Source of the DNA: an uncultured Candidatus Saccharibacteria bacterium
GTDB lineage: Bacteria > Patescibacteriota > Minisyncoccia > Phycocordibacterales > XYD1-FULL-46-19
Length of the DNA: 64,000 nt
Assembly: GCA_964655995.1 (NCBI GenBank)
Contig: CAZZPK010000003.1
Span: forward strand, 22,960-86,959
Direction: 5' to 3'
Of the stretch, positions 1,813 through 64,000 are shown one piece after another. Position 1 is the stretch's first letter, and each line of letters starts with the position of its first letter. The notes below the pieces were generated by a model. The model ran no database searches, was not told where the DNA came from, and saw nothing but the letters and a program-made list of their open reading frames with translations. The translations under genes and the position numbers were made by a program.

Positions 1813-4158
1813 ATGGCTATGCCAAATTTTGAAAAACCATCAAATGATGAAAAGATACCGGAAATGAAGTTGATGTCCAATAAGAAGCCTAAAGAACTTA
1901 AATTGCCTGAGGTTATCGAATTACCCGATCTGCGTACCAAAGAGGAGCGCCTGATGGACAAGCGTATCGAGAGAGTGAGGAAAAAAATGGGTAAGCCGCC
2001 GCTAGGTTTACGCGCTCGTTATCCAATCACACCTGATACTCCTAAAGTAGAAGAGTCTAAGCCAAAACTCCGTCCGTCAGCCAATAAGCCGCGGCCACCA
2101 GTTCGCCGGCGCATACCACCGCCCCACGAGGTTACTGAGTATGATGATCAAGGTGATCCGGTCAGTTATTTAAAATCAATAGTTAAAAAGAAAAGTCGCT
2201 TATCTAAAAAGCCGGTTAAGCCACCGGCAAAATCTCAACCCAAATCCCAAAAAGCAAAAGCTAAAAACCCCAAGACCGTTGAGGAGGTCTATCAACAAAT
2301 GTTGATCGATGCCAAAAGAGGTAAAATTAAACCGCCGGAAGACTTGCCGATAGGCGATCCGTTTGATCTGAAAGTTCCCGCTTTTACCAAACCCAAAGAA
2401 GTGCCATTAACCGAGGAAGAGGAAAAATATTTTGAAACGCCGGAAATTAAATCCGTGGTAGATGAGGACATCAGCGAGCCGGAGCATGGCCCAGCAGAGT
2501 ACGAGCATGATTTGGAAGAGATGGATTATAATGAAGAATCTTCTATAACGCCAGAACATATACCACCGTCTGTTAGTCGACGTCCAACTCAAAAATCTAA
2601 AGTGCCGTCGCATTTGCCGGAGGTTGAAGTGGTCGAGCCTACCGCTCCGGTTTATCAAGAAAAAGACTTAGAAGAGGTTTTGCGTATTGGCCACGATAAT
2701 AGAAGAGACCGCGAGCGTGAAGCACAATTTGTTTTAGAGGCCGAGCGTCGGGCCATTGATCCACAAGGTCTAGATCAACCTATTTTAAAAGGTACTCCGG
2801 AGGGTGATGCTTTTGAAGCCTTGCGCGCAAAAGAAAAAGAATTAGAAACTCCCGAAATGCCACCATCTTTGCCAGAGATTAAGCCGGAGGTTGAGAGAGT
2901 GGATGAGGATTTTGGACGAATGATGGGAGAGAAGCCGGTTGGGGAGGAGGCTAAACAGTCGGCGTGGAAGAAGTTTAAGGAGGCTGGCGCCGATTTGGGT
3001 GGCGCCATCGCCGACGAGATTAAAGAAAAGTTTAAGCCGGTGGGCGAGAGATTGCAGAGCGGCGCCGAGAGGGCGGTCAATGCTTGGCGCTTTGCTCGCG
3101 AGCGGGTCAAGGGTGTGGCCACCTTCGGCTTTTGGGAGGTGCATGAGGCGGAATATTTGCGTTCGGAGGTTAAGGGTGTGTCTAAAGAGGCCAGTCGTAA
3201 TACCAAATTATTACAACGAGAACAAAATTTAACTTACGATGATGAGCATGAGGAAGCTAACCGAATGAATAATCTCTATGACCAGTTGGGTATTGAGGAG
3301 CGTAACGCTTTGCCGCCACAGGAATTGTATCGCAATATGGCCAACTGGGTTTCAGCGGAAAAGATCAGTCAAAATAAAGAAATTGAGCAAGAGTTGGTTG
3401 ACGGTGCTCTAAGTACTTTGCGCGAGCGTTTTGCCAAAAAAGTCGATTTTCGTGGCCGGCCGATTTTAACTGAAGAGAAATTATTTAATATTGAGTCCGA
3501 GTTGCGCCGAACCGCTTCCGTTGCTCGTTATACTCAAATTGACCGCGATATTATTAATTACAATAAATTAATCCGCAAAAATCTCGATCCGGAGTGGTAT
3601 CGGCGCTATGTGGCCGGCGGCATCGAGTTTGCATTGGCGAGTGTCGCTTTGGGAGCCGTTGCTTATACAAGCAGCGCCAAGATCGGCGCATGGTGGGGCG
3701 GCCGTATGGCCAAAAAAGCGCTCGGTACTGGTGTTAAACAGGCGGCTGAGCGAGTAATGCACGCCGATGCGCCAACCGGCACCGGCAGTAGTTACGTCCA
3801 AGATCTTATTAAAAAATTCCTTACTCCCACAGCCGCCGGCGGGGTGGAGTTGGAGGATTTGCCCATGCCCGACGAGGAGCTAATAGATAAAGGCGACAAT
3901 ATTTGGAATATTACCAAAGATTATTTGTCTAACCATGGCATTAAAAATCCGACCAATGCTCAAATTTTGGAGGCGGCCAAAGAGGTCGCCAAAGAGAACA
4001 ATATCGCGGTTAAAGAGTGGGGCATTAGCGGCGAGATCTCTGATAGGCAGTTACGTCCCGGTAAAGTCTTGTCGCTTAAGAGTTTAGCCGCCAAGGCGGC
4101 GCTCTTGGCCGGCAAAAAAGCAGTCAAAGCCGCGGTTAATATTGCAATGGAATCTTAA
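1813..4158 (+). CDS. large hypothetical protein, Lys/Pro-rich low-complexity N-terminal third, one predicted TM segment near residue 600
   Basis: 781-aa ORF; strongly biased N-terminal composition (KPK/PPV runs); hydrophobic stretch GGIEFALASVALGAVAYTSSAKIGAWWGG; no recognisable catalytic motif. Confidence 0.55.
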   Translation: MAMPNFEKPSNDEKIPEMKLMSNKKPKELKLPEVIELPDLRTKEERLMDKRIERVRKKMGKPPLGLRARYPITPDTPKVEESKPKLRPSANKPRPPVRRRIPPPHEVTEYDDQGDPVSYLKSIVKKKSRLSKKPVKPPAKSQPKSQKAKAKNPKTVEEVYQQMLIDAKRGKIKPPEDLPIGDPFDLKVPAFTKPKEVPLTEEEEKYFETPEIKSVVDEDISEPEHGPAEYEHDLEEMDYNEESSITPEHIPPSVSRRPTQKSKVPSHLPEVEVVEPTAPVYQEKDLEEVLRIGHDNRRDREREAQFVLEAERRAIDPQGLDQPILKGTPEGDAFEALRAKEKELETPEMPPSLPEIKPEVERVDEDFGRMMGEKPVGEEAKQSAWKKFKEAGADLGGAIADEIKEKFKPVGERLQSGAERAVNAWRFARERVKGVATFGFWEVHEAEYLRSEVKGVSKEASRNTKLLQREQNLTYDDEHEEANRMNNLYDQLGIEERNALPPQELYRNMANWVSAEKISQNKEIEQELVDGALSTLRERFAKKVDFRGRPILTEEKLFNIESELRRTASVARYTQIDRDIINYNKLIRKNLDPEWYRRYVAGGIEFALASVALGAVAYTSSAKIGAWWGGRMAKKALGTGVKQAAERVMHADAPTGTGSSYVQDLIKKFLTPTAAGGVELEDLPMPDEELIDKGDNIWNITKDYLSNHGIKNPTNAQILEAAKEVAKENNIAVKEWGISGEISDRQLRPGKVLSLKSLAAKAALLAGKKAVKAAVNIAMES

Positions 4159-4508: not shown

Positions 4509-5355
4509 GCGATTTAAGCCAGACAATTTGGTGATTACTTTTAAACCAAGTGCGTTGCCGCTTGGCAAAGCGCCAAATATCCTGCTCTAACTCTTTTACC
4601 AGTTCTTGTTTACTGATTTTGCCCTGGAGATGGCGGGCCACCGAGCGATACTCTAAGCCCAGCTCCCCAAGCCTTTTCCAGCTCAAGCCTTGCTGGTGCA
4701 ATTTTTTAACTTCGGCCACCAGCCCCTGCTTGAGGCGCGCCGTCAGCCGCCTGTTTATTTTTTGTTTTAAAATCTGATCGGGTAAATCAAGGCCGATAAA
4801 CAGCGGCTCATACTCGGGTTTGGCTTTAAGCTTAGGCACTCGGCCCAAAGCGCGCGCAATCTCAATGGCTCGGATCAGGCGGCGGGGATTATGCCGGTCG
4901 ATAGTTTTAGCCCGGGCGGGGTCAAGGGCGCGCAGTTTTTGGTACAGTTGGTCGGTTGGTAATTTGGCCAGGATTGCTCGCAATTTGTCATTGGGCGGCA
5001 CCTCGGGCCAAACGAGCCCGCCAACCAAAGCGTCGATATAAAAGCCGGTGCCGCCGACGATAATCGGCGTTTTGTTCTTCTTGATTATTTTAGCAATCGC
5101 TTTCTCGCCTAATTTTTTAAATTGATTTGCCGTAAAGCGCTTTTTAGGCGAGGCGACGTCCAAGAGATAGTGGGGGACGCCCTCCATTTCTTTCTTGCTG
5201 ATTTTTCCACTGCCGATGTTTAGGCCGCGGTAAACTTGGCGCGAGTCGGCCGAGATCACTTCGCCACCTATTTTTTTAGCCAGTTTTACCGCCAAGGCGC
5301 TTTTGCCGGTGGCGGTTGGGCCCACTATAACGATGATTTTTGGTTTAGTCTCCAC
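4465..5355 (-). CDS. miaA: tRNA dimethylallyltransferase
   Basis: P-loop GPTATGKS, the DSRQVYRGLNIGSGK motif and the overall MiaA layout. Confidence 0.85.
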   Translation of the reverse strand: METKPKIIVIVGPTATGKSALAVKLAKKIGGEVISADSRQVYRGLNIGSGKISKKEMEGVPHYLLDVASPKKRFTANQFKKLGEKAIAKIIKKNKTPIIVGGTGFYIDALVGGLVWPEVPPNDKLRAILAKLPTDQLYQKLRALDPARAKTIDRHNPRRLIRAIEIARALGRVPKLKAKPEYEPLFIGLDLPDQILKQKINRRLTARLKQGLVAEVKKLHQQGLSWKRLGELGLEYRSVARHLQGKISKQELVKELEQDIWRFAKRQRTWFKSNHQIVWLKSPSLSTCLKSCANHF

Positions 5356-17611: not shown

Positions 17612-17639
17612 AAGTTTTCTTTGCCCTGCCTTGCGGGGC

Positions 17640-17683
17640 TTTTTATTGACTAAATTTTAAAAAATCGGTAGGGTGGGGGAGGA
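17640..17683 (+). promoter_or_regulatory. 44-bp conserved upstream element (copy 1) with a TTGACT -35-like box and a G-rich tail
   Basis: tttttattgactaaattttaaaaaatcggtagggtgggggagga is identical to 18556..18599. Confidence 0.5.
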
Positions 17684-18496: not shown

Positions 18497-18555
18497 TCTG
18501 ACGTCACTCAAGTAAAAATTTACGTTCCCTGGTCCGAGTAAATTGGATTAGGGAA

Positions 18556-18599
18556 TTTTTATTGACTAAATTTTAAAAAATCGGTAGGGTGGGGGAGGA
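18556..18599 (+). promoter_or_regulatory. 44-bp conserved upstream element (copy 2)
   Basis: Identical to 17640..17683. Confidence 0.5.
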
Positions 18600-18632: not shown

Positions 18633-18824
18633 ATGACCAAGAAAACAGAAGCAAACAATTTTCGTCCGATTCCGGCGGCCAAGCTGATGCGCTGTGAGGG
18701 TCGGTGTCGACGTCGTTATCCGGCCAATGAGCTAGGGCCGGGTGGTATCTGCCGCTCCTGCCACAAGCGTGTGTTTGACGAGCAGCTTGATCGCTGGGCG
18801 ATCGAGTCGTCCTGCGCCAGTTAG
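18633..18824 (+). CDS. small zinc-ribbon protein
   Basis: CEGRC...CRSCHKR (C-x3-C...C-x2-C); the ATG at 18633 follows GGAGGAAGAGAGGAA. Confidence 0.4.
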   Translation: MTKKTEANNFRPIPAAKLMRCEGRCRRRYPANELGPGGICRSCHKRVFDEQLDRWAIESSCAS

Positions 18825-18835
18825 GGGGGTGAACT

Positions 18836-20141: not shown

Positions 20142-21032
20142 ATGAAAAACGCCATTATTTTTATTGTCATTATTTTAATTATTGCCGGCGGGGCTTACTG
20201 GCTCTGGACTAATCAGGCGGCCGCTCCGGCGCCGGTAGAGCCGGGGGCAGGGGCTACCACCACGCCACCGGTAGTAGAGGACAAGACCAAGACGGTCATC
20301 GGTCAGTCGGTGGAGGGGAGGGACATTGTGGCTTACCACTTTGGCGAGGGGGCGGATCGCATCCTCTTTGTGGGCGGTATACACGGTGGCTACTCGTGGA
20401 ATACACCTCTCCTCGCTTACGAGCTGATGGATTATTTAAAAGCTAATCCTAGCGCCGTACCCAGCAATATTACGGTAACGGTGATCCCGGTGCTTAACCC
20501 CGATGGTCTCACTAAAGTGGTGGGTACCACGACCAAGTTTGCCGCCGCCGATGTGGCTAAAAGCAAAGAGACGCAGGTGGCTGGCCGCTTTAACGCTAAC
20601 GAGGTGGACTTAAATCGCAACTTTGACTGCGAGTGGCAACCGGAGGCCACTTGGCAGAGTAAAAAGGTGAGTGGCGGTAGCGCCGCCTTCTCCGAGCCGG
20701 AGAGCCGCGCCGTTAAAAATTATATCGAGGCTAATAAGCCCAAGGCCGCCGTGGTGTGGTACAGCGCGGCTGGCGGCGTCTTTGCCTCCAATTGTCGCAA
20801 TGGCGATGGGGTAATGCCCGAGACTTTGGCCCTCACTAACACCTACGCCAAAGCGGCCGGCTACAAGGCCTATGAGAGCTTTGACTTTTACGAGACGACG
20901 GGTGACATGGTCAATTGGCTCGCTAAAAATAATATCCCGGCGATCAGCGTCCTCCTCACTAACTACAGCGCTACCGAGTGGAGTAAAAATAAAGCGGGCA
21001 TTGAGTCGATCCTAAAATACTACGCTAAATAA
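20142..21032 (+). CDS. M14 zinc-carboxypeptidase-like protein, probably catalytically inactive
   Basis: Signal/TM N-terminus and the DLNRNF motif. The HxxE glutamate is replaced (HGGYSW), the second His ligand is Tyr (VVWYSAAG) and the catalytic Glu is Leu (ISVLLTN). Confidence 0.6.
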   Translation: MKNAIIFIVIILIIAGGAYWLWTNQAAAPAPVEPGAGATTTPPVVEDKTKTVIGQSVEGRDIVAYHFGEGADRILFVGGIHGGYSWNTPLLAYELMDYLKANPSAVPSNITVTVIPVLNPDGLTKVVGTTTKFAAADVAKSKETQVAGRFNANEVDLNRNFDCEWQPEATWQSKKVSGGSAAFSEPESRAVKNYIEANKPKAAVVWYSAAGGVFASNCRNGDGVMPETLALTNTYAKAAGYKAYESFDFYETTGDMVNWLAKNNIPAISVLLTNYSATEWSKNKAGIESILKYYAK

Positions 21033-21907
21033 TGTGGTCGTTACGTCAGCTCCTGATCGGTGCGCTCGCGGTGCTCATTTTGGCCGGCGGGGGCATTGGC
21101 GCGCTTAAGTGGTACCGGTCGCGCCAGGCGGCCGTTTTGCCGCCGGCTCCGGCCGTCGCCACCTCCACCAAGCAAGTTATCGGCTACTCGGTGCAAGGGC
21201 GAGCGATTGAGAGTTACACCTTTGGCACCGGCGCGACCAATCTTTTGTTTGTTGGCGGTGTGCACGGCGGCTATGAGTGGAATAGTGTTTTACTTGCCTA
21301 CGCGGTAATTGATTATTTAAACGCGAGCCCCGGCGTGGTGCCGGCTAATGTGAGCGTAACGGTGGTGCCTAATTTAAATCCCGACGGCGTCTACAAGGTG
21401 GTGGGTAAAGAGGGGCGCTTTGCGGCCGGCGACGTACCGGCCGACAAGGTCGTCCGCGCCGCCGGCCGCTTTAACTCCCGCGCCGTCGACCTAAACCGCA
21501 ACTTTGACTGCAAGTGGCAGGCCACCAGCACCTGGCAGGGGCGCGAGGTGAGCGCGGGCACGGCCGCCTTCTCCGAGCCCGAGGCGGCGGCCCTGCGCAA
21601 TTTGGTTTTAAAAATCAAGCCTAAAGCGGCTGTCTTTTGGCACTCGCAGGCCGGCGCCGTCTACGCCTCGGAGTGCGAGCAGGGGATACTGCCCGCCACT
21701 TTAACCTTAATGAGCACTTACGCCCAAGCCGCCGACTACCCGGCCGTTAAAACCTTTGACGCTTACGCTATCACCGGCGACGCCGAGGGCTGGCTGGCCT
21801 CCCTCGGCATCCCGGCCATCACGGTGGAATTTAAAACCCACGACTCTCCCGACCTCCCCCAAAACCTCGCTGGCGTTAAGGCTGTCCTTAACCTCTATCG
21901 CCCTTAA
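21032..21907 (+). CDS. M14 zinc carboxypeptidase-like protein with an intact catalytic set
   Basis: HGGYEW, FWHSQAG, DLNRNF and ITVEFKTH (catalytic-Glu position) line up with carboxypeptidase A landmarks. Confidence 0.65.
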   Translation: MWSLRQLLIGALAVLILAGGGIGALKWYRSRQAAVLPPAPAVATSTKQVIGYSVQGRAIESYTFGTGATNLLFVGGVHGGYEWNSVLLAYAVIDYLNASPGVVPANVSVTVVPNLNPDGVYKVVGKEGRFAAGDVPADKVVRAAGRFNSRAVDLNRNFDCKWQATSTWQGREVSAGTAAFSEPEAAALRNLVLKIKPKAAVFWHSQAGAVYASECEQGILPATLTLMSTYAQAADYPAVKTFDAYAITGDAEGWLASLGIPAITVEFKTHDSPDLPQNLAGVKAVLNLYRP

Positions 21908-27408: not shown

Positions 27409-27452
27409 TTATCAACATCATAACATAGCCCCTCATGGTAGAATATGGGTAT

Positions 27453-28688
27453 ATGAAAAAACTCACTTTATTGTTAATTGTTTTGGTTTTGGTCGGGGCG
27501 GCGGCGGTAGTGCCGGCGCAGGCGTCTACTAAATGCGACTTTTTGCGCGACTTGGAGCTTGGAGTTAATGGCGAGGATGTGCGCTGTCTCCAAAAGTATT
27601 TAAACAGCGCCGGATTTATTATTGCCACCAGCGGGGCGGGGGCGCCGGGGCAAGAGACCTCACTCTTCCGCCAGTTAACTAAAGAGGCCATCGCCCGGTG
27701 GCAGGCGGCCAATGGTATTACTCCGGCCAGCGGCTACTTTGGCCAATTGTCGCGCAAAAAATATCTGGAGTTAATGGGTGGCGGCAGTTCAGGCTCGTCC
27801 AATGTTGAGGCGCTCAAAAATCAAGCGGCTCAATTGGCGGCTCAACTCGAGGCTCTAAAAAATAAAAATAAAAGCCAAGATGACGACGATGATGACGATG
27901 ATGGCAATAAGGGAGTAATAGTCTCCTCGTCTAATAAAACGGCCAATGAGGCGACGGTGCGCGCCAAGATCAAGCAGGCACTAAAAATGATCGATACCGC
28001 CGATGATGAGATCGATGACAATAATAGTGGTGCCGATATTGAGCAAGCAAAAAATAATTTAGCCGACGCCAAAGATGATTTATTTAAGGCGATGGAGGCT
28101 TATTTTGATAGCGACTATGAGGAGGCGTTGGAGCTGGCCACTGATGCTTACAGCAATGCGGAGGATGCGTTTGAGGATGCCGGCGGCGAGACTAAGGAGG
28201 ACGAGGTTGATAACTTAATTGATAAAGTGGAGGACGAGATTGCTGAGGCTTGGGAGACAATTGAAGAGGCTAACGATAATGACGAGAGTACCGACGAGGC
28301 CGAGGAGATCTTAGAGCAAGCCGAGGATAAATTAGACGAGGCTAAAGAGCAATTGGATGAGGAGAATTTTGACGAGGCCGAGGAGTTGGCCGACGAGGCA
28401 CGCGACTTGGTAGACGACGCTATTGATGCTATTGGCGATGAGAGCGACAAGGACAAAGCCAAGGAGGCGATCCAAGATGCCCAGGAGGCCATCGATGATG
28501 CCGAGGAGGAGATTGATGATGCCGATGACGACGGTGAGGATGTCGACGAGGCCGAGGATTTACTAAGCGAGGCTGAAGATAAGCTGGAGGAGGCCAAAGA
28601 CGCTTACAATGACGGCGACTATGACGAGGCTAAGGAGTTAGCCGAGGAGGCGGAGGACTTGGCCGACGACGCCGTTGATGAACTATAA
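27453..28688 (+). CDS. secreted protein with a peptidoglycan-binding-like domain followed by a long poly-acidic repeat region
   Basis: Signal peptide; PG_binding_1-like segment (CLQKYLNSAGF...AIARWQAANGIT); a run of eight Asp; then internally repeated D/E-rich helical units (DEAEELADEARDLVDDAIDA / DEAKELAEEAEDLADDAVDE). Confidence 0.55.
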   Translation: MKKLTLLLIVLVLVGAAAVVPAQASTKCDFLRDLELGVNGEDVRCLQKYLNSAGFIIATSGAGAPGQETSLFRQLTKEAIARWQAANGITPASGYFGQLSRKKYLELMGGGSSGSSNVEALKNQAAQLAAQLEALKNKNKSQDDDDDDDDGNKGVIVSSSNKTANEATVRAKIKQALKMIDTADDEIDDNNSGADIEQAKNNLADAKDDLFKAMEAYFDSDYEEALELATDAYSNAEDAFEDAGGETKEDEVDNLIDKVEDEIAEAWETIEEANDNDESTDEAEEILEQAEDKLDEAKEQLDEENFDEAEELADEARDLVDDAIDAIGDESDKDKAKEAIQDAQEAIDDAEEEIDDADDDGEDVDEAEDLLSEAEDKLEEAKDAYNDGDYDEAKELAEEAEDLADDAVDEL

Positions 28689-36442: not shown

Positions 36443-36464
36443 TTATCATAGCTATTAATTATAT

Positions 36465-36500
36465 TCCTAACTTGAGACGGTCGTCTGAGATTAGGAAAGA
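36465..36500 (+). repeat. direct repeat copy 1 carrying the AGACGGTCGTC motif
   Basis: tgagACGGTCGTCtgagATTAGGAAAGAG, compared with 37058..37090 aaACGGTCGTCaaaaGTTAGGAAAGAG. Confidence 0.5.
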
Positions 36501-36501
36501 G

Positions 36502-37107
36502 CTAAGAAAGATTAAATATTTTCTTTAACCAGCTATCATTTTCTAAATAAGATACTTCCATATACAACACCTCTTTGCCAATATGATAGTTAGCCTTTAA
36601 TAGGGCTACTACTTCTTGGCAATCGTATGGATAAACCCAAACACTATTTTGGAGCCTTATTAAGCCTAAGTGCTGAAACCAAGCTCGCAATTTGTTTCTA
36701 GTGGATCGTTTCCATTCCTTAATATCAAAAATAATAATTCGATATTTACCATCCCAGCGTTTTGGTTTATTTATGGTTAATTTTTCTAACTCATATTCTT
36801 TTAACTTAATTTTGCCACTTTTGGTCAATCGGACAACTTTCTGTCTTTTACTATTATTTTCTATTTTAACTAAACCCTGTTTCTCTAGGCGGCCAACCAC
36901 TTGATTAATGTAATTCCTTTTCTTTGATTCTTGTTTTGGTAGAAAACGGAGTAATTTTAGGCAATTTGGTGCCACTACTGCTAAAGCAATAATCCCAGTT
37001 AGGCCAATAACACTAAGAATTATTTGTTGATAGTCTGAATTTGGTGATCTCATACCTATTCCTAAGTATAAACGGTCGTCAAAAGTTAGGAAAGAGGTGT
37101 TTGACAA
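36502..37107 (-). CDS. membrane-anchored PaaX-like wHTH regulator with a Cas2/VapD-fold middle domain, lacking the PaaX C-terminal domain
   Basis: N-terminal TM, wHTH (QVVGRLEKQGLVK...VVRLTKSGKIKL), then RWDGKYRIIIFDIKEWKRSTRNKLRAWFQHLGLIRLQNSVWVYP. This resembles the E. coli PaaX segment PPWDGKWLLLLSEGLD...LIWQGFG and the Cas2 consensus (YDI...R.Q.SVFE). AT-rich. Confidence 0.5.
   Translation of the reverse strand: MSNTSFLTFDDRLYLGIGMRSPNSDYQQIILSVIGLTGIIALAVVAPNCLKLLRFLPKQESKKRNYINQVVGRLEKQGLVKIENNSKRQKVVRLTKSGKIKLKEYELEKLTINKPKRWDGKYRIIIFDIKEWKRSTRNKLRAWFQHLGLIRLQNSVWVYPYDCQEVVALLKANYHIGKEVLYMEVSYLENDSWLKKIFNLS
37058..37090 (+). repeat. direct repeat copy 2 carrying the ACGGTCGTC motif
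   Basis: See copy 1; together they bracket the PaaX-like gene. Confidence 0.5.
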
Positions 37108-37881: not shown

Positions 37882-38457
37882 TTATTTTTTGGTGACTAAC
37901 GACTGGGCATTGCCTTGGAGGCCGGTGGCGTCGCCCTCGAGACCGGAGACATTGCCCGAGAGGCCTGAGACATCCCCGGTAATATTGGTCACAATACCAG
38001 CAATGCGGCTAACATCGCCTTTAATATTAGTGACCGTGCCGGAGATATTGGTGGCATCGCCCGTGAGATCATCGACATTACCCACCAGGTCGCTGACATT
38101 GCCTTTTAGCTTGCTGGCATCGCCGCGGATATTGCTGACCGAGCCGCGGATAAAACTGACATTGCCCAAGAGGCCCGAGATATCGCCGGAGATATTGCTC
38201 ACATCGCCACGGAGAGGGGTTACGTCACCTTTAATGTTGCTAACATCGCCTTGGATTTTGGAGACATCGCCCAAAATGCCGGTAATATTGCCGCGGATGG
38301 CGCTGGCATCGCCGGTAATTTTATGGAGCGAGACGTCGCCGTAAATACCGTGGACGCTGCCGCGCAAATTGGCAAAATCGCCCCAGACATTGGGGTGGAG
38401 ATTGGTAACATTTTTGGTGTTAAGCTGGGTTTTGTTGGTGCTTGGTTGTAAGGTCAT
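37882..38457 (-). CDS. 7-residue tandem-repeat protein (about 22 consecutive GD[VAI]S.I. heptads)
   Basis: GDVSNIKGDVTPLRGDVSNISGDISGLLGNVSFIRGSVSNIRGDASKLKGNVSDLVGNV...; the DNA has a 21-nt periodicity across about 37930..38400. Confidence 0.55.
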   Translation of the reverse strand: MTLQPSTNKTQLNTKNVTNLHPNVWGDFANLRGSVHGIYGDVSLHKITGDASAIRGNITGILGDVSKIQGDVSNIKGDVTPLRGDVSNISGDISGLLGNVSFIRGSVSNIRGDASKLKGNVSDLVGNVDDLTGDATNISGTVTNIKGDVSRIAGIVTNITGDVSGLSGNVSGLEGDATGLQGNAQSLVTKK

Positions 38458-41867: not shown

Positions 41868-42224
41868 ATGAAAATATCTATTAAGGCCACCGGCCTCGCA
41901 CTTACTCCAGCGTTACAAGGGTATGTCGAAAAGCGCCTCGCTGCCGTGGGGCGCTTTGTGGATACGGCGCAGAATGTAGCCTTTGCCGCGGTGGAAATCG
42001 GCAAAACCACCAGGCATCATAAGCGGGGGGAGGTTTATCTGGCCGAGGTGACGATTAAAGCGAGCGGCGCCAACTATCGCGCCGAGAGCACGGCCGACGA
42101 CTTGCACGCCGCCATTGACGATATGCGCGACGAAATTTTGGAGGTTATCAAAAAGCGCCGCGGCAAACAAACTGACCTCAAAAAACGCGGCGGCCGCCAA
42201 GCCAAAAAAATGTTAAGGGGGTAA
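41868..42224 (+). CDS. hpf: ribosome hibernation promoting factor (RaiA/YfiA family)
   Basis: MKISIKATGLALTPALQGYVEKRL has the sigma54-modulation-protein fold signature. Confidence 0.7.
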   Translation: MKISIKATGLALTPALQGYVEKRLAAVGRFVDTAQNVAFAAVEIGKTTRHHKRGEVYLAEVTIKASGANYRAESTADDLHAAIDDMRDEILEVIKKRRGKQTDLKKRGGRQAKKMLRG

Positions 42225-42251
42225 AATGTCGTAAAATAAGGTTTTTTAAAT

Positions 42252-42287
42252 TATACCAAGTAGCCGCGATCGCGGTCAGATGGTATA
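42252..42287. repeat. REP-like palindrome R1 (TATACCA...CCGCGATCGCGG...TGGTATA)
   Basis: tataccaagtagCCGCGATCGCGGtcagatggtata; the inner 12 bp are a perfect palindrome. Confidence 0.6.
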
Positions 42288-42385
42288 GTTGACAATATTG
42301 GTAAGGGTATGCTATAATGGTAGGTAGAGTTGTTTGAAAGTAAATAACACGGAACCATAATCCCCAAAGGGAGAGGAGATTGAAG

Positions 42386-42811
42386 ATGAGTTGGATTTTG
42401 GCGGTGGCACTTTGCTTTATACTTTGGAGTACCTACGCAATCCCGGGCAACTTAGCCGAGAAGACGCACGGGGTCTCGGTCAATATGCTTTTTGAGACCT
42501 TGGCGTTTATTGGGGTGACGCTTCTCCTCGGTAGTAAGATTATCGAGGGGTTACCCAAAGTTACTTTGAGCTCAGCCGCTCTCGCCTCAATGATGGGGGC
42601 CGGATCGGCGCTCGGATTTTACTTTTTTCTCACCGCGCTTAGTTTGGCGCCGGGAACAAAAGGTATTGTCCTGGTCGTTTTGATCGCCGGGGTCACCTTC
42701 CCGGTGCAGAGTGCTCTCTTCAGCTTTTTTGGAGAGGCGCTGAGCACCCAGCAGTGGGTAGCGATCATTGGCATGGGGGCGTCCCTCGTCCTCTATAACT
42801 GGAAGTTTTAA
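42386..42811 (+). CDS. small four-TM membrane protein (DMT/EamA-half-like)
   Basis: Ribosome-binding site gggagaggag; four hydrophobic helices; bracketed by R1 and R2. Confidence 0.45.
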   Translation: MSWILAVALCFILWSTYAIPGNLAEKTHGVSVNMLFETLAFIGVTLLLGSKIIEGLPKVTLSSAALASMMGAGSALGFYFFLTALSLAPGTKGIVLVVLIAGVTFPVQSALFSFFGEALSTQQWVAIIGMGASLVLYNWKF

Positions 42812-42840: not shown

Positions 42841-42886
42841 CCGCACATGTTGCTTCCGGCAACCTCTGTGCGGTTTTGTTTTTTAA
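42841..42886 (+). terminator. intrinsic terminator after the 42386..42811 gene
   Basis: ccgcaca-tgttgcttccggcaacc-tctgtgcgg followed by ttttgtttttt. Confidence 0.55.
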
Positions 42887-42888
42887 AT

Positions 42889-42924
42889 TATACCAAGTAG
42901 CCGCGATCGCGGGGAGATGGTATA
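42889..42924. repeat. REP-like palindrome R2
   Basis: tataccaagtagccgcgatcgcggggagatggtata; its 5' 34 nt, including the ttttttaaat lead-in, are identical to R1. Confidence 0.6.
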
Positions 42925-43072
42925 GTTTTGTTTTTTATTAATTCCGGTTAATCTTGATTGTTCCACTTGCTCACGATCGTATAAAAGTGGAATAATCAGT
43001 AAGGAGAGGTGGTTGATTTTTGTGGTTTTTTGTTTAATAATGTCTTTAGATTAACCTAGAAGGAGACAAGAG

Positions 43073-43336
43073 ATGTCAAAAATAAATGAGAAGAGACTCA
43101 AACTTTTAACACCCCGTGAATTTGTTTTTATGCGACAGTTGAAAAGAGGTTTAATAACACCTCTTTCTGATGATGTTGTCGCTTGTAAATTAGCTTCTCT
43201 GGGCCTCATAACTTTGCGGACGGGAAAATTAACGGACATAGGAGCACACATTCTGTGGGAAGAAGAACTTGAGCAAAGGCCGTTACTTAAGCTAATTTAC
43301 TTAATTTACGGCCCACTTTTTTGCAGGGTCTCTTGA
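43073..43336 (+). CDS. hypothetical small protein (AT-rich)
   Basis: Strong ribosome-binding site gaaggagacaagag ATG; its 3' end overlaps the fmt stop convergently. Confidence 0.35.
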   Translation: MSKINEKRLKLLTPREFVFMRQLKRGLITPLSDDVVACKLASLGLITLRTGKLTDIGAHILWEEELEQRPLLKLIYLIYGPLFCRVS

Positions 43337-51603: not shown

Positions 51604-51658
51604 CCCGCCCGGAGACAACGACCCAAATCGTCTGTCACGAGGCGGGTTTGTTGTTTTT
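51604..51658 (+). terminator. conserved intrinsic terminator module, copy A
   Basis: cccgcccggagacaacgacccaaatcgtctgtcacgaggcggg followed by tttgttgttttt. Confidence 0.6.
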
Positions 51659-51736
51659 GCCTAAAATGTAAACTAATTAGACGGTCGTCAAACTATTTCA
51701 CATTCTCAATCGTAAACGGTCGTGAACAGTTGGGAT

Positions 51737-52046: not shown

Positions 52047-52106
52047 CCCGCCAACGGACAACGACCCGAATCGTCTGTCGCGAGGCGGGTTTGTTGTTTT
52101 TATTTT
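52047..52106 (+). terminator. conserved intrinsic terminator module, copy B
   Basis: cccgccaacggacaacgacccgaatcgtctgtcgcgaggcgggtttgttgtttttatttttc; about 90% identical to copy A. Confidence 0.6.
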
Positions 52107-61091: not shown

Positions 61092-62549
61092 ATGGCCTCA
61101 CTTGAAGAATTGCGCGCGGAGCGGCTTAAAAAATTAGCGGCCCTTAAAGCGGCCGGCATTGAGGCGTATCCAATCTCGAGCGGACGTACTGATGAGATTG
61201 CCGAGATTTTAAAAAAATTTGACCGTTTGGCAGGTAAAAGGGTGGTGGTGGCCGGCCGGGTGCTCTCGGTGCGTGGCCAAGGGGCGCTCGTTTTTGCGGA
61301 CTTAAACGACGGCACCGGTAAAATCCAGGCACTTTTTAAAGAGGGGGAGATTAGCGGCGAGCAGTTTAATTTATTTAAAGACACAGTAGATATTGGCGAC
61401 TTTATTGAGGTCGGTGGCAGTTTAATGACGACCAATCGTGGGGAGAGGTCGGTGGCAGTGGAGAGCTGGGCCATGCTTACTAAAAGTCTGCGCCCCTTGC
61501 CCGACAAGTGGCACGGCTTGGCCGATGCCGATGAGCGCTATCGCCATCGCTACTTAGACAGCCTAGCTAACCCTGAGGTCAAAGAGCGTTTTGTAGTGCG
61601 CTCTAAAATAATCTCGTTGATCCGTAAATTATTAGACAAAGACGGCTTTTTGGAGGTGGAGACGCCGATGCTCCAGCCTCAGCCGGGCGGGGCCACCGCG
61701 CTGCCTTTTGTGACGCATCATAATGCTTTGGATATTGATTTGTTTTTGCGCATCGCGCCGGAACTTTATTTAAAACAGATGATTATTGGCGGCTTCCCTC
61801 AAGTGTATGAGGTATCGCGCAACTTTCGCAACGAGGGGATCGATGCCACGCATAATCCGGAGTTTACGATGCTTGAGTGGTATCGGGCCTACAGCGACGC
61901 CAAGACGGAGCAAAAATTTGTCGAGAAGTTTATTAAAACCATAGTTAAAACGATTACCGGCGGCACAACGCTTACTTACGACGGGCAAGAAATTGATTTT
62001 GGCGCTAAGTTTAATAAAGTCTCCTATCTTGATCTGCTTAAGGGGGCAGGGGTAGCTAAGCCGCTTACGGCGACGCTCGCGGAGGTCGCCGATCAAGCGC
62101 GCGAGCTTGGGGTAAAAGTGGAGCCAGCCGATAGTAAGGCTAAAATTTTAGATAATATTTATAAAAAAGTATGCCGGCCCAAGATTATCCAGCCGACTTT
62201 TATTGTGGAGTATCCGGTGGATTATTTGCCGCTGGCCAAGCGCTCGGCTAAAAATCCTAACTTGGTAGACGCCTTCCAATTAGTGGTTGGGGGGATGGAG
62301 TTGGTTAAAGCCTTCTCCGAGCTTAATGATCCGGTGGATCAGCGCGAGCGTTTTGCCGAGCAGGACAAAGTTAAAGCCGGCGGCGACGCCGAGGCCCAGA
62401 CGACCAATGAGTCCTTCCTCGAGGCGCTCGAGCATGGCTTGCCGCCCACCGGCGGCGTAGGTATCGGCCTGGATCGTTTGACCATGCTCCTCACCAACAC
62501 CAAAAACATCCGTGAGGTAATCTTTTTCCCCACTTTACGGCCAAGGTAG
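61092..62549 (+). CDS. lysS: lysyl-tRNA synthetase (class II)
   Basis: OB-fold N-terminus, FLEVETPMLQ, GGMEL...NDP, and the GLPPTGGVGIGLDRL motif. Confidence 0.9.
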   Translation: MASLEELRAERLKKLAALKAAGIEAYPISSGRTDEIAEILKKFDRLAGKRVVVAGRVLSVRGQGALVFADLNDGTGKIQALFKEGEISGEQFNLFKDTVDIGDFIEVGGSLMTTNRGERSVAVESWAMLTKSLRPLPDKWHGLADADERYRHRYLDSLANPEVKERFVVRSKIISLIRKLLDKDGFLEVETPMLQPQPGGATALPFVTHHNALDIDLFLRIAPELYLKQMIIGGFPQVYEVSRNFRNEGIDATHNPEFTMLEWYRAYSDAKTEQKFVEKFIKTIVKTITGGTTLTYDGQEIDFGAKFNKVSYLDLLKGAGVAKPLTATLAEVADQARELGVKVEPADSKAKILDNIYKKVCRPKIIQPTFIVEYPVDYLPLAKRSAKNPNLVDAFQLVVGGMELVKAFSELNDPVDQRERFAEQDKVKAGGDAEAQTTNESFLEALEHGLPPTGGVGIGLDRLTMLLTNTKNIREVIFFPTLRPR

Positions 62550-62580
62550 AATTTTAGGTAGAATTAAAATCACTTGTTTT

Positions 62581-62636
62581 TATTTGTTTAAAAACTATAC
62601 CATCTAGCCGCGATCGCTGGCAGATGGAATAATTTA
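62581..62636. repeat. REP-like palindrome R3 plus shared flank (55-bp unit)
   Basis: aaactataccatctagccgcgatcgctggcagatggaataatttaaaacaataaa, identical to 63693..63747. Confidence 0.65.
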
Positions 62637-62660
62637 AAACAATAAACCAGCTAGTTTGCA

Positions 62661-63620
62661 CTAGCTGGTGACAAAATCGCTCGAAAGAATTGGTAGCCAT
62701 TCATGTTCGGCGACGATAAGATCAACCACTCTTTTTGTCTCATATTCAGAAGCCTCATTAAAGTCATAAAGAACAATGACTTCATATGAGAATTCCTCAG
62801 GTGGATCAGTAAACAGGAGGCCGAACAAGACAACACCATCACGCATTTTTTCATTCAGACTTAGGTCAGGATACTCAAAATGGGCAATCTCAAGATGGTG
62901 CCAAAGAGTATCTATGCAGCTCCTGTGGGAACCAAATCCCCAAGACATTCGCCATTCTAAGAGGCTGGTATGAATAGCAAACCCCTTAACACTATTACCT
63001 AGAGAGACAGCATATCCATTGCTCTCTAGTAATTTGTCAGCCAATCTCTTCTTTTGTATTTTAGACAGGGAGTTTATTTTTTCCAGTTGTTGTTGGTACT
63101 CTTTATTTACTATAGTTGCAGGTGGTGATAATTTAGCTAAGTTGCCCGATCGCCAGCTTGCCTGCAAGGACCTTGCCCATTCTTGTAGCTCAGGATCATG
63201 ATGCCTCAGACTCAACGCGCTTCCTGTTTTTTGAGGACATAAATCATCTTCATGTCGGTCTAAAGGTTTGACGAAAATGAGCGGTACTCCTGGCAAAAGT
63301 TCTTTTTGGAGATAATTCACGCCCTTCTCAAACTCAAGTTCGTTTGTTGCCATTATTGCACCAATGAGTCGGCCGCAGTCTCTGGCTTCTTTGATTCGAT
63401 TGAGTTTTCTGACTAACCCGCGGTTTCCTCTGGTGTCTTTCAGATCAAACCAGGATTCAACAATTAGGACATCAAGCCCCAATCGTTGCCTTAATACTAG
63501 GGCGAGTATATCCCTGTCTGTATTATTGGTGTAAGTAAAATCATTAGAACGCTCGAGTATCAAAATCAGCGGTCTATTATCCATCTGCCCTCCTCCATTT
63601 TGTTTTTGAGGTGCTTCCAA
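62661..63620 (-). CDS. hypothetical protein (AT-rich, bracketed by the 55-bp perfect direct repeats)
   Basis: 319-aa ORF, about 40% GC; no confident domain assignment. Confidence 0.45.
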   Translation of the reverse strand: MEAPQKQNGGGQMDNRPLILILERSNDFTYTNNTDRDILALVLRQRLGLDVLIVESWFDLKDTRGNRGLVRKLNRIKEARDCGRLIGAIMATNELEFEKGVNYLQKELLPGVPLIFVKPLDRHEDDLCPQKTGSALSLRHHDPELQEWARSLQASWRSGNLAKLSPPATIVNKEYQQQLEKINSLSKIQKKRLADKLLESNGYAVSLGNSVKGFAIHTSLLEWRMSWGFGSHRSCIDTLWHHLEIAHFEYPDLSLNEKMRDGVVLFGLLFTDPPEEFSYEVIVLYDFNEASEYETKRVVDLIVAEHEWLPILSSDFVTS

Positions 63621-63692
63621 AACGGATTATGTACTTTTTGTATAAAAAGTCAATATTGTGTCATGGCCCAATACCAAAAACATCTATATTCT

Positions 63693-63747
63693 AAACTATA
63701 CCATCTAGCCGCGATCGCTGGCAGATGGAATAATTTAAAACAATAAA
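63693..63747. repeat. REP-like palindrome R4 plus shared flank (55-bp unit)
   Basis: Identical to R3. Confidence 0.65.
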
Positions 63748-63756
63748 TATTTAATA

Positions 63757-63808
63757 AAACAACAAACCCGCCTCGTAACAGACGATTTGGGTCGTTGTCG
63801 CTGGCGGG
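63757..63808 (-). terminator. conserved intrinsic terminator module, copy C (reverse orientation)
   Basis: The reverse complement ...cccgccagcgacaacgacccaaatcgtctgttacgaggcgggtttgttgtt matches copies A and B; it lies immediately 3' of the partial minus-strand CDS. Confidence 0.55.
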
Positions 63809-63812
63809 TGGT

Positions 63813-64000
63813 TTATGTGGTTGTGGGTTTAGAGAAAGACTTTTTTATTTCATCAATTATGCATTCAATTGAATCAATTGAATTGCTGTCAATTTGTATG
63901 GTTTGCCCTGTTTGCCAAACATAGTTCATTGCCCAGGTATCCAGATTTGAACGAACCCACTCCTGTACTCGTTCAGGGTGATTGATCAATGTTTCCAGCA
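63813..64000 (-). CDS. partial CDS (C-terminal 62 aa; 5' end beyond the window), AT-rich
   Basis: Open frame from the window edge to the TAA at 63813..63815 (...IDEIKKSFSKPTTT*). Confidence 0.3.
   Translation of the reverse strand, partial: LETLINHPERVQEWVRSNLDTWAMNYVWQTGQTIQIDSNSIDSIECIIDEIKKSFSKPTTT

Follow-up and report, generated by a model that had tools for sequence, protein, structure and literature searches.

Why do two genes in one stretch of a patescibacterial chromosome each lie between two nearly identical copies of a short palindromic repeat? The stretch (the window) comprises 64,000 nucleotides of contig CAZZPK010000003.1 (GenBank assembly GCA_964655995.1) from an uncultured Candidatus Saccharibacteria bacterium. 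Two copies of the repeat, R3 and R4, bracket an AT-rich gene for a protein of 307 amino acids next to lysS, and two copies of a variant, R1 and R2, bracket the gene of a small four-helix membrane protein (4TM protein) downstream of hpf. The explanation that we favour, and to which we would give an even chance, is that of a palindromic intergenic repeat private to this lineage, akin to repetitive extragenic palindromes (REP), miniature inverted-repeat transposable elements (MITE) and palindrome-associated transposable elements (PATE), which was added to existing spacers and copied locally. An initial annotation, made from the letters of the window alone, had called the repeats REP/MITE-like, and this is still the best description in kind: each is a short and imperfect palindrome, none lies inside a gene, and relatives lack them at the orthologous sites.

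Anatomy and arrangement of the four copies

R3 and R4 share a maximal exact match of 55 nt and flank an AT-rich gene (42.2% GC by our count; window: 50.5%), as the initial annotation had it; its position for R4 was right and that for R3 (62581-62636) about 11 nt too low, the actual copy being 62592-62646. The protein of the enclosed gene had been given as 319 amino acids, its length when the frame is read from a TTG; the product in the database and the two homologues point to the ATG as the start, from which 307 amino acids are encoded. The variant with a perfect 12-nt core, CCGCGATCGCGG, is likewise found where it was reported, in the palindromes on both sides of the 4TM gene: R1 and R2 share 48 of 50 positions (35 exact, 2 mismatches, 13 exact). 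Both pairs are direct repeats with a within-pair identity of 96-100%. Between the pairs, 28 of the 36 palindrome positions are identical and 8 differ, when each copy is read on the strand of the gene that it flanks (plus for R1/R2, minus for R3/R4). A degenerate 22-mer (TATACCANNTAGCCGCGATCGC, up to 3 mismatches) has six hits in the window, at element sites only, versus 0.00 expected; a search of the window with an nhmmer profile built from the four copies yields no additional one (next best E = 0.36). When four elements were placed at random, weighted by length, into the window's 31 intergenic spacers that are 40 nt or longer, 0.27% of the trials gave two pairs with a single gene between the members of each (p ~0.003). 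Given the exact repeats, the 0.00 expected hits and the placement result, the repeats and their paired bracketing of genes are real and not random.

All four copies are intergenic and include an imperfect palindrome of 36 nt with GCGATCGC at its centre. On the strand of the enclosed gene, each has the form TTTTAAAT - TAT[A/T]CCA..GCGATCGCGG-NN-AGATGGTATA - GTT: the unit consists of a T-rich tail (TTTTAAAT), the palindrome and GTT(T). The right half of the palindrome (GCGATCGCGG-NN-AGATGGTATAGTT) is common to all four copies, and the left half varies between the pairs. Terminal inverted repeats are present as arms of 10-14 nt (AAAYTATACCATCT / AGATGGTATARTTT), the conserved 10-nt arms being 16 nt apart. 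The sequences that follow the palindromes on the right are GTTGACA, GTTTTGT, GTTTTTA and GTTTAGA; T runs are present on both sides of three of the four copies (R2 has GTTTTGTTTTTT on both sides), as candidates for a target-site duplication or else as part of the palindrome or of a terminator tract. The initial annotation also considered that the palindrome could be a methylation-sensitive regulatory site; its central octamer GCGATCGC shows no general enrichment, with six occurrences in 64 kb (2.1 expected), four of them inside the elements. The 10-mer arm is found once outside the elements in the window. Folded as single-stranded DNA, the copies have hairpin z-scores of -3.0 to -3.9 relative to shuffled sequences, and R3 is predicted to form a hairpin both in DNA and in RNA. 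The differences between the pairs disrupt base pairs of the left arm without compensation and therefore give no sign of selection on the hairpin itself.

The copies have a common position relative to transcription units. Three of them (R2, R3 and R4) lie behind a separate canonical terminator hairpin: R2 and R3 abut the hairpin of the enclosed gene and supply its T tract, which in the case of R3 is the T-rich tail (62632-62646), and R4 is located directly 3' of the terminator of the next minus-strand gene, an AT-rich gene (37% GC) cut off by the window's end. The fourth copy, R1, lies behind hpf, with no other terminator-like hairpin between the hpf stop codon and R1. Thus, each copy is 3' of a transcription unit and has one fixed orientation to that unit. 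A hairpin with a U tract right after it, as in an intrinsic terminator, is seen in R2 (GTTTTGTTTTTT) and on the minus strand of R3 (GTTTTT), and is not seen in R1 (GTTGAC) or R4 (GTTTAG).

This arrangement is what the favoured explanation, local copying of a lineage-private repeat, would produce. Each pair would stem from one local copying event, in which a copy lying against a terminator T tract would have been duplicated along with that tract, the new copy landing 3' of the neighbouring gene that reads in the same direction. Such a process would account for the near-identity of the members of a pair, for the 8 differences in 36 positions between the pairs and for the common orientation to the upstream gene. 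The identity within a pair reaches beyond the palindrome only into the T-rich tail, which fits the copying of T tract plus palindrome. The copying agent might be a trans-acting transposase encoded elsewhere in the genome, or recombination and repair.

Insertion of the repeat would probably have side effects on its surroundings. Read outwards, the arms give TGGTATAGT on the downstream side of all four copies and, on the upstream side, TGGTATAAT in R1 and R2 and TGGAATAAT in R3 and R4. The motif TGNTATAAT is present six times in the window, and all four occurrences outside the elements are directly 5' of a start codon and in the correct orientation; a small gene has AGATGGTATAAAT (33810) as its -10 region. 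Since the matching motifs elsewhere in the window precede start codons, the palindrome arms are plausible as predicted extended -10 boxes, and the outward boxes TGGTATAGT and TGGTATAAT may start transcription into the neighbouring genes. In addition, each copy behind a terminator would provide an extra hairpin, and homologous recombination between direct repeats of 50-55 nt could remove the gene that they enclose. A repeat that brings extended -10 boxes and a hairpin up to terminators, and that leaves direct repeats around accessory genes, would help to explain the turnover of spacers and accessory genes in the genomes of Patescibacteria.

The same features could also belong to a cis-regulatory site kept by selection, either an operator of a dimeric protein or a bidirectional promoter/terminator block that insulates or co-regulates the enclosed genes; this we consider unlikely, if worth serious attention. 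The twofold symmetry with its 10-nt arms, the right half conserved in all four copies and the resemblance of the arms to the extended -10 motifs found at real promoters of the window would all suit a regulatory site. R1 touches the promoter of the 4TM gene, its right end overlapping the -35 box TTGACA (42289-42294), R2 combines a hairpin with a good T run, and a likely operator arrangement is found in the same window around a PaaX_M-like gene, with an analogous one in another genome, L095 (see below). However, the site is absent from the lysS locus of three relatives and from the regions upstream of the 4TM homologues, two copies lie behind genes and no regulator gene is adjacent. The distance to the promoter varies as well: the palindrome centre is ~55 nt upstream of the predicted start for R1 and ~96 nt for R4. 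Finally, perfect identity over 55 nt, non-palindromic T-rich tail included, exceeds what an operator needs.

A technical origin of the lysS pair was also considered, namely an assembly artefact in which the 1046-nt core existed as a loop that was wrongly threaded into the chromosome. The contig, of 92,848 nt, is metagenome-assembled and the exact match is 55 nt long; 55 is the largest default k-mer of metaSPAdes. Nevertheless, a loop at one 55-mer would still call for genuine reads that connect the repeat with either end of the core, lysS and the gene are assembled in the order that two relatives share, and R1 and R2, built in the same way, differ at two positions, an outcome that a k-mer overlap cannot give. 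We therefore regard an artefact as extremely improbable.

Table 1. Repeat copies and neighbouring features in the window
Feature	Position	Strand	Palindrome	Location and associated signals
R1, variant copy	42241..42290	+	42252-42287	between hpf and 4TM gene
R2, variant copy	42878..42927	+	42889-42924	directly 3' of 4TM terminator hairpin
R3, 55-nt copy	62592..62646	-	62596-62631	3' of 307-aa gene on minus strand
R4, 55-nt copy	63693..63747	-	63697-63732	5' of 307-aa gene promoter
307-aa gene	62661..63584	-		promoter TTGACT-16-CATAAT 63653-63626; terminator 62669-62646
4TM gene (141-aa four-helix membrane protein)	42386..42811	+		promoter 42289-42318; terminator hairpin 42841-42873
lysS	61092..62549	+		convergent with 307-aa gene; anchor for comparing relatives
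hpf (ribosome hibernation factor)	41868..42224	+		upstream of R1
Terminator module of minus-strand gene running off window	63756..63810	-		stop codon of the gene 63828-63830

The lysS locus in relatives and the cassette question

The 307-aa protein has only two close homologues among 5.8 billion proteins, and both are encoded beside lysS in the two nearest relatives, L001 (LysS 86% identical) and L004 (LysS 82% identical). Both homologous genes face lysS in convergent orientation and are closed by the same hairpin (CAGCTAG..CTAGCTG) as in the window, and neither locus has the palindrome on either side or any flanking repeat longer than 19 nt. For the lysS pair, this contradicts the proposal of the initial annotation that the repeats delimit an insertable gene cassette: gene, orientation and hairpin are alike in genomes that lack the palindrome. 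In L001, the lysS stop codon is followed by the hairpin after 2 nt, whereas the window has 99 nt, R3 among them, between the two. This R3-bearing segment is missing from L001 and R4 is missing from L001, L004 and a third relative, L006, the spacers being too diverged for the ends to be mapped.

The 307-aa protein and its two homologues have pairwise identities of 48%, 43-46% and 53%, compared with 82-86% for LysS, and the three genes all have ~42% GC irrespective of the GC content of the host genome. The approximately equal divergence and the common locus without repeats argue for vertical inheritance in place and not for delivery as a cassette by the repeats. By these comparisons, the 307-aa gene is a fast-evolving gene that has been inherited vertically in place. 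The alignments of the orthologous loci likewise show the repeat to have been gained in this lineage after the split from the nearest sequenced relatives, in pre-existing spacers and independently of the 307-aa gene.

The third relative, L006 (LysS 80% identical), has the empty site that the initial annotation had proposed to look for, as lysS is followed by mraZ after 204 bp. This site has neither the gene nor the repeat, but half of the terminator module found beyond R4 in the window is still there, and this remnant suggests a deletion and not a vacant attachment site.

The spacer between lysS and mraZ is variable and differs in all four genomes compared: it contains genes for proteins of 330 and 95 amino acids in L001 (900-2600), genes for proteins of 53 and 288 amino acids in L004 (5450-6900), the 307-aa gene and at least one AT-rich minus-strand gene in the window (62550-64000), and just 204 bp in L006 (2127-2330).

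In the window, the arrangement nevertheless has much in common with sites of attachment or recombination. On this reading, a recombinase from elsewhere in the genome, or RecA working on the 50-55 nt of identity, would insert units of one promoter, gene and terminator and release them again as circles, with one copy of the site left on each side, as in integron cassettes, pdif modules and IS605-type PATEs with a passenger gene. Such a mechanism would explain why two pairs each surround exactly one gene (p ~0.003), why each pair consists of direct repeats and both pairs are oriented alike with respect to the gene inside, why the members of a pair are more alike than copies from different pairs and why the inner edges coincide with a -35 box (R1) or with terminator hairpins (R2 and R3). 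For IS605-type PATEs, identical palindromes near the ends and loss of the core through these repeats have been documented (PMC3119063). Weakly in its favour, the 4TM protein is 75-80% identical to proteins encoded in quite different neighbourhoods, and LysS is at most 65% identical to any database entry outside the three close relatives. Against these points stand the presence of the 307-aa gene at the same locus of L001 and L004 with no repeat and with a divergence that fits vertical descent, and the absence of flanking palindromes from all six other 4TM loci examined. Moreover, both enclosed genes have their own promoters, the GTTRRRY core of attC is missing and the 10-nt arms are 16 nt apart, compared with 6-8 nt in dif. 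No transposase, integrase, resolvase, Xer or Y1/RAYT (REP-associated tyrosine transposase) domain was found in any of the ~60 open reading frames (ORFs) of the window, a nearby RAYT or integrase being what the initial annotation had suggested as a check. On balance, we judge attachment sites distinctly improbable.

A more far-reaching variant assumes an undescribed cassette-shuffling system of Patescibacteria, in which transcription units would be looped out and re-inserted at solo copies behind terminators, by a recombinase encoded elsewhere or by the 307-aa family itself; the repeat-free relatives would then represent fixed cassettes with decayed sites. We consider this very doubtful.

The second locus is less informative. 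The 4TM protein has ~35 homologues with 60-80% identity, and in six loci inspected (L008, L009, L010, L012, L094 and L095) the gene has six different neighbourhoods, each time with its own promoter and terminator. None of these six loci has a flanking palindrome, the genomes being too distant to separate gene movement from synteny decay. Flanking repeats of the homologous genes in L001, L004, L008, L009 and L012 do not exceed 22 nt and none is related to the element. With pyruvate kinase as the anchor, GTDB genomes showed no relative in which the neighbourhood of the 4TM gene is conserved: the best are only 70% identical, and Hpf, 4TM, Fmt, Def and PriA are all absent from the vicinity of pyruvate kinase in 34 Patescibacteria loci.

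Scans with the exact pattern of either half of the element found nothing in 185,579 GTDB representative genomes and nothing in IMG/VR. The same scan of JGI metagenomes returned one hit (L093), which lies within a coding region and has only one of the arms and is therefore considered a chance match. A profile scan of 95 related loci (~1 Mb) yielded nothing related to the element, and there was no match in plasmids. As far as public data go, the element thus appears to be private to this lineage.

Several observations weigh against our preference for a lineage-private repeat that was copied locally. The four copies amount to two independent sequences in 64 kb, and copy number is among the defining properties of REP or MITE; a transposase able to move the element is absent from the ~60 ORFs of the window. 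There is no clean comparison of a filled and an empty site that would define the ends of the element or a target duplication, and the hpf-4TM-fmt locus has no relative close enough for comparison. Lastly, the tight fit to the edges of two self-contained transcription units and the pairing (p ~0.003) would also be expected from a cassette mechanism.

Comparison with known repeat families and recombination sites

The literature searched gives no description of small palindromic repeats interspersed in the reduced genomes of Patescibacteria; with four copies in one genome, the value of the present case is mainly that of a pointer. Among established families, REP sequences and bacterial interspersed mosaic elements (BIME) are mobilised by RAYT transposases, are present in tens to hundreds of copies per genome and have a GTAG or GTGG head 5' of the stem. 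The elements of the window resemble them in being 36-nt imperfect palindromes with a G+C-rich stem that are strictly extragenic, located behind genes next to terminators and species-specific in sequence, and R1 and R2 even have GTAG directly 5' of CCGCGATCGCGG. They differ in that R3 and R4 have CTAG-CCGCGATCGC instead of GTAG, in the AT-rich outer arms and the T-rich tail, which are atypical, in the arrangement as direct pairs around genes and not as inverted doublets, and in having four copies in 64 kb with no RAYT found in the window.

The Correia elements, MITEs of Neisseria, have inverted ends that start with TATA, promoter boxes at either or both ends and transcript hairpins that are processed (PMC2649163, PMC2229807). 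With these, and also with ERIC, RUP and BOX, our element shares the palindrome, the promoter-like ends, the hairpin and, apparently, the occurrence of filled and empty sites between close relatives. It is, however, much shorter (~46-55 nt versus 100-160 nt), has no separate core between terminal repeats and no copies in any other genome searched, and a TA target duplication is not demonstrable here. The window shows no autonomous insertion sequence that has the ends of the element.

PATEs of the IS605 type derive from IS200/IS605 elements and have no transposase; loss of the core between their identical near-terminal palindromes leaves solo, terminal-only forms of ~52 bp, as described for HqIRS46 and ISHwa23 (PMC3119063). 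In the two pairs, too, a unit of 0.6-1.1 kb has nearly the same imperfect palindrome, directly repeated, close to either end, with no long terminal inverted repeats between the ends, and a repeat-mediated deletion would leave a solo element of ~50 nt. In contrast to such PATEs, the core gene of the lysS unit is ancestral at a locus that lacks the palindromes, so the unit did not move as a whole; furthermore, neither TnpA nor TnpB is found in the window, and with only two independent left ends no conserved 4-6-nt target was identified.

A fourth family with similarities is that of putative mobile promoters, for which reuse of promoter spacers of 50-100 nt is widespread (PMC3488235). Size (50-55 nt), identity of at least 96%, position next to unrelated genes and promoter-like boxes all agree, and the window contains a 49-nt example of its own (17635-17683/18551-18599; see below). 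The difference is that two of the four copies lie behind genes and that promoter activity of the arms is only predicted.

Other candidates were rejected. Integron attC sites and pdif/Xer modules also consist of imperfect palindromic repeats that bracket single genes; yet none of the four right ends fits GTTRRRY (with no RYYYAAC), there is no integrase, attI or Pc and the enclosed genes have their own promoters, and the 16-nt spacing of the arms does not agree with the 11-6-11 Xer/dif site (two 11-nt arms with a 6-8-nt centre, ~28 nt). HIP1, a stand-alone cyanobacterial octamer that is present about once per kb and inside genes too (PMC5861425), is identical to the central octamer GCGATCGC, but there are only six GCGATCGC per 64 kb, four of them inside the element, and the organism is a Patescibacterium. 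CRISPR repeats are excluded by spacings of 637 and 1101 nt that enclose whole genes, parS by its geometry and core motifs, and a DNA-uptake sequence by the single occurrence of the 10-mer arm outside the elements.

Other duplicated modules and the genes of the window

The palindromic repeat is not the only spacer module with several copies in the window. A 49-nt block, 96% identical at 17635-17683 and 18551-18599, consists of a T tract, TTGACT-17-TAGGGT and the ribosome-binding site GGGGGAGGA; it precedes pyrF and an unrelated Cys-rich ORF of 63 amino acids (18634-18825) and is thus a reused promoter/5'-UTR (untranslated region) module that brackets one gene. A 55-nt terminator module (CCCGCC..ACAACGACCCAAATCGTCTGT..CGAGGCGGGTTTGTTGTTTT), a second repeat family with copies that are 89-94% identical in the window, is found behind two unrelated small genes (51604-51658 and 52047-52101) and, inverted, beside R4 (63756-63810). 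It has homologues at the same lysS position in L006 (2168-2215) and L001 (~1060-1110), and also in L009 (4434-4500) and L094 (905-950), and its 3' half CGAGGCGGGTTTGTTGTTTT is located behind unrelated genes in several other Paceibacteria genomes. The duplication of several spacer modules around single genes suggests that local copying of such modules is general in this genome.

Palindromes of a different type, TTCCTAA..ACGGTCGT..TTAGGAA, flank the PaaX_M-like gene (36502-37107, minus strand) at 36463-36496 and 37058-37091, and a third copy lies between two small genes (51702-51735). In L095, a PaaX_M gene beside the 4TM gene is flanked by ACGCATATGCGT palindromes (4548-4575 and 5193-5220). These palindromes are probably the operators of the respective regulators.

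The window is otherwise ordinary chromosome, with topA, relA/spoT, dprA, serS, pyrF, tgt, uvrB, pyk, hpf, fmt, def, priA, two mreB genes, mreC, a gene for a PBP2-type penicillin-binding protein, greA and lysS. The closest matches of LysS, the 4TM protein and pyruvate kinase all belong to Patescibacteria (Paceibacteria), and a close LysS carries the name Candidatus Vogelbacteria. Rfam searches of both repeat loci, at the gathering threshold and with E up to 10, returned only noise.

The 307-aa protein has no hit in Pfam or PHROG, and only non-significant matches in PADLOC (E 0.035) and to PDB profiles (E >=0.19); tblastn against phages and plasmids gave nothing meaningful. Its AlphaFold model is poor (pLDDT 49.5): the N-terminal ~105 residues are predicted to be alpha/beta (pLDDT ~70) and the remainder has low confidence. 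An exhaustive profile search places the protein in a family of 54 representative clusters, mostly of 370-400 amino acids, that match in two stretches. Nine family members that were scanned have no Pfam domain, except for surface-repeat domains in a marginal match of 1261 amino acids.

The 4TM protein carries a DMT-like name at JGI. The promoters of both enclosed genes are of the sigma-70 type, matching the consensus in 12 of 12 positions (4TM gene) and in 10 of 12 (307-aa gene). The 5' leaders of the 4TM gene in the window (42319-42385), in L008 (3890-4000) and in L009 (3925-4000) contain a hairpin and, immediately ahead of the ribosome-binding site, an ACGR motif. Guanidine-II riboswitches are regulators of small exporters with four helices, and the leader might be a small riboswitch, although it matches no Rfam family even at E up to 10.

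Two of the distant 4TM loci have features of their own. In L012, a 64-nt perfect palindrome (3636-3699) lies downstream of smpB, and TCGACCCCGCCCAC is repeated upstream of and just past the 4TM gene (3620-3700 and 3876-3889); this sequence is possibly the 3' end of a tmRNA gene, and there could have been integration at ssrA. In L008, a large serine recombinase (Resolvase, Recombinase and Zn_ribbon_recom domains; 1-1230) is encoded ~2.8 kb upstream of the 4TM homologue, near a T5orf172 gene, and this neighbourhood may be a mobile island. In the window, the stretch between R2 and fmt (42925-43336) is AT-rich (36-41% GC) and includes an ORF of 87 amino acids (43073-43336) with no family match; it may be another accessory insertion.

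Repetition within the window extends to coding regions: one group of loci (20142-21907, 37882-38457 and 27435-28688) comprises tandem paralogues of an M14 carboxypeptidase with DNA stretches that are 75-81% identical, the gene of a coiled-coil protein with 21-nt periodic repeats and an acidic repeat protein with repeats of the DEAEE type.

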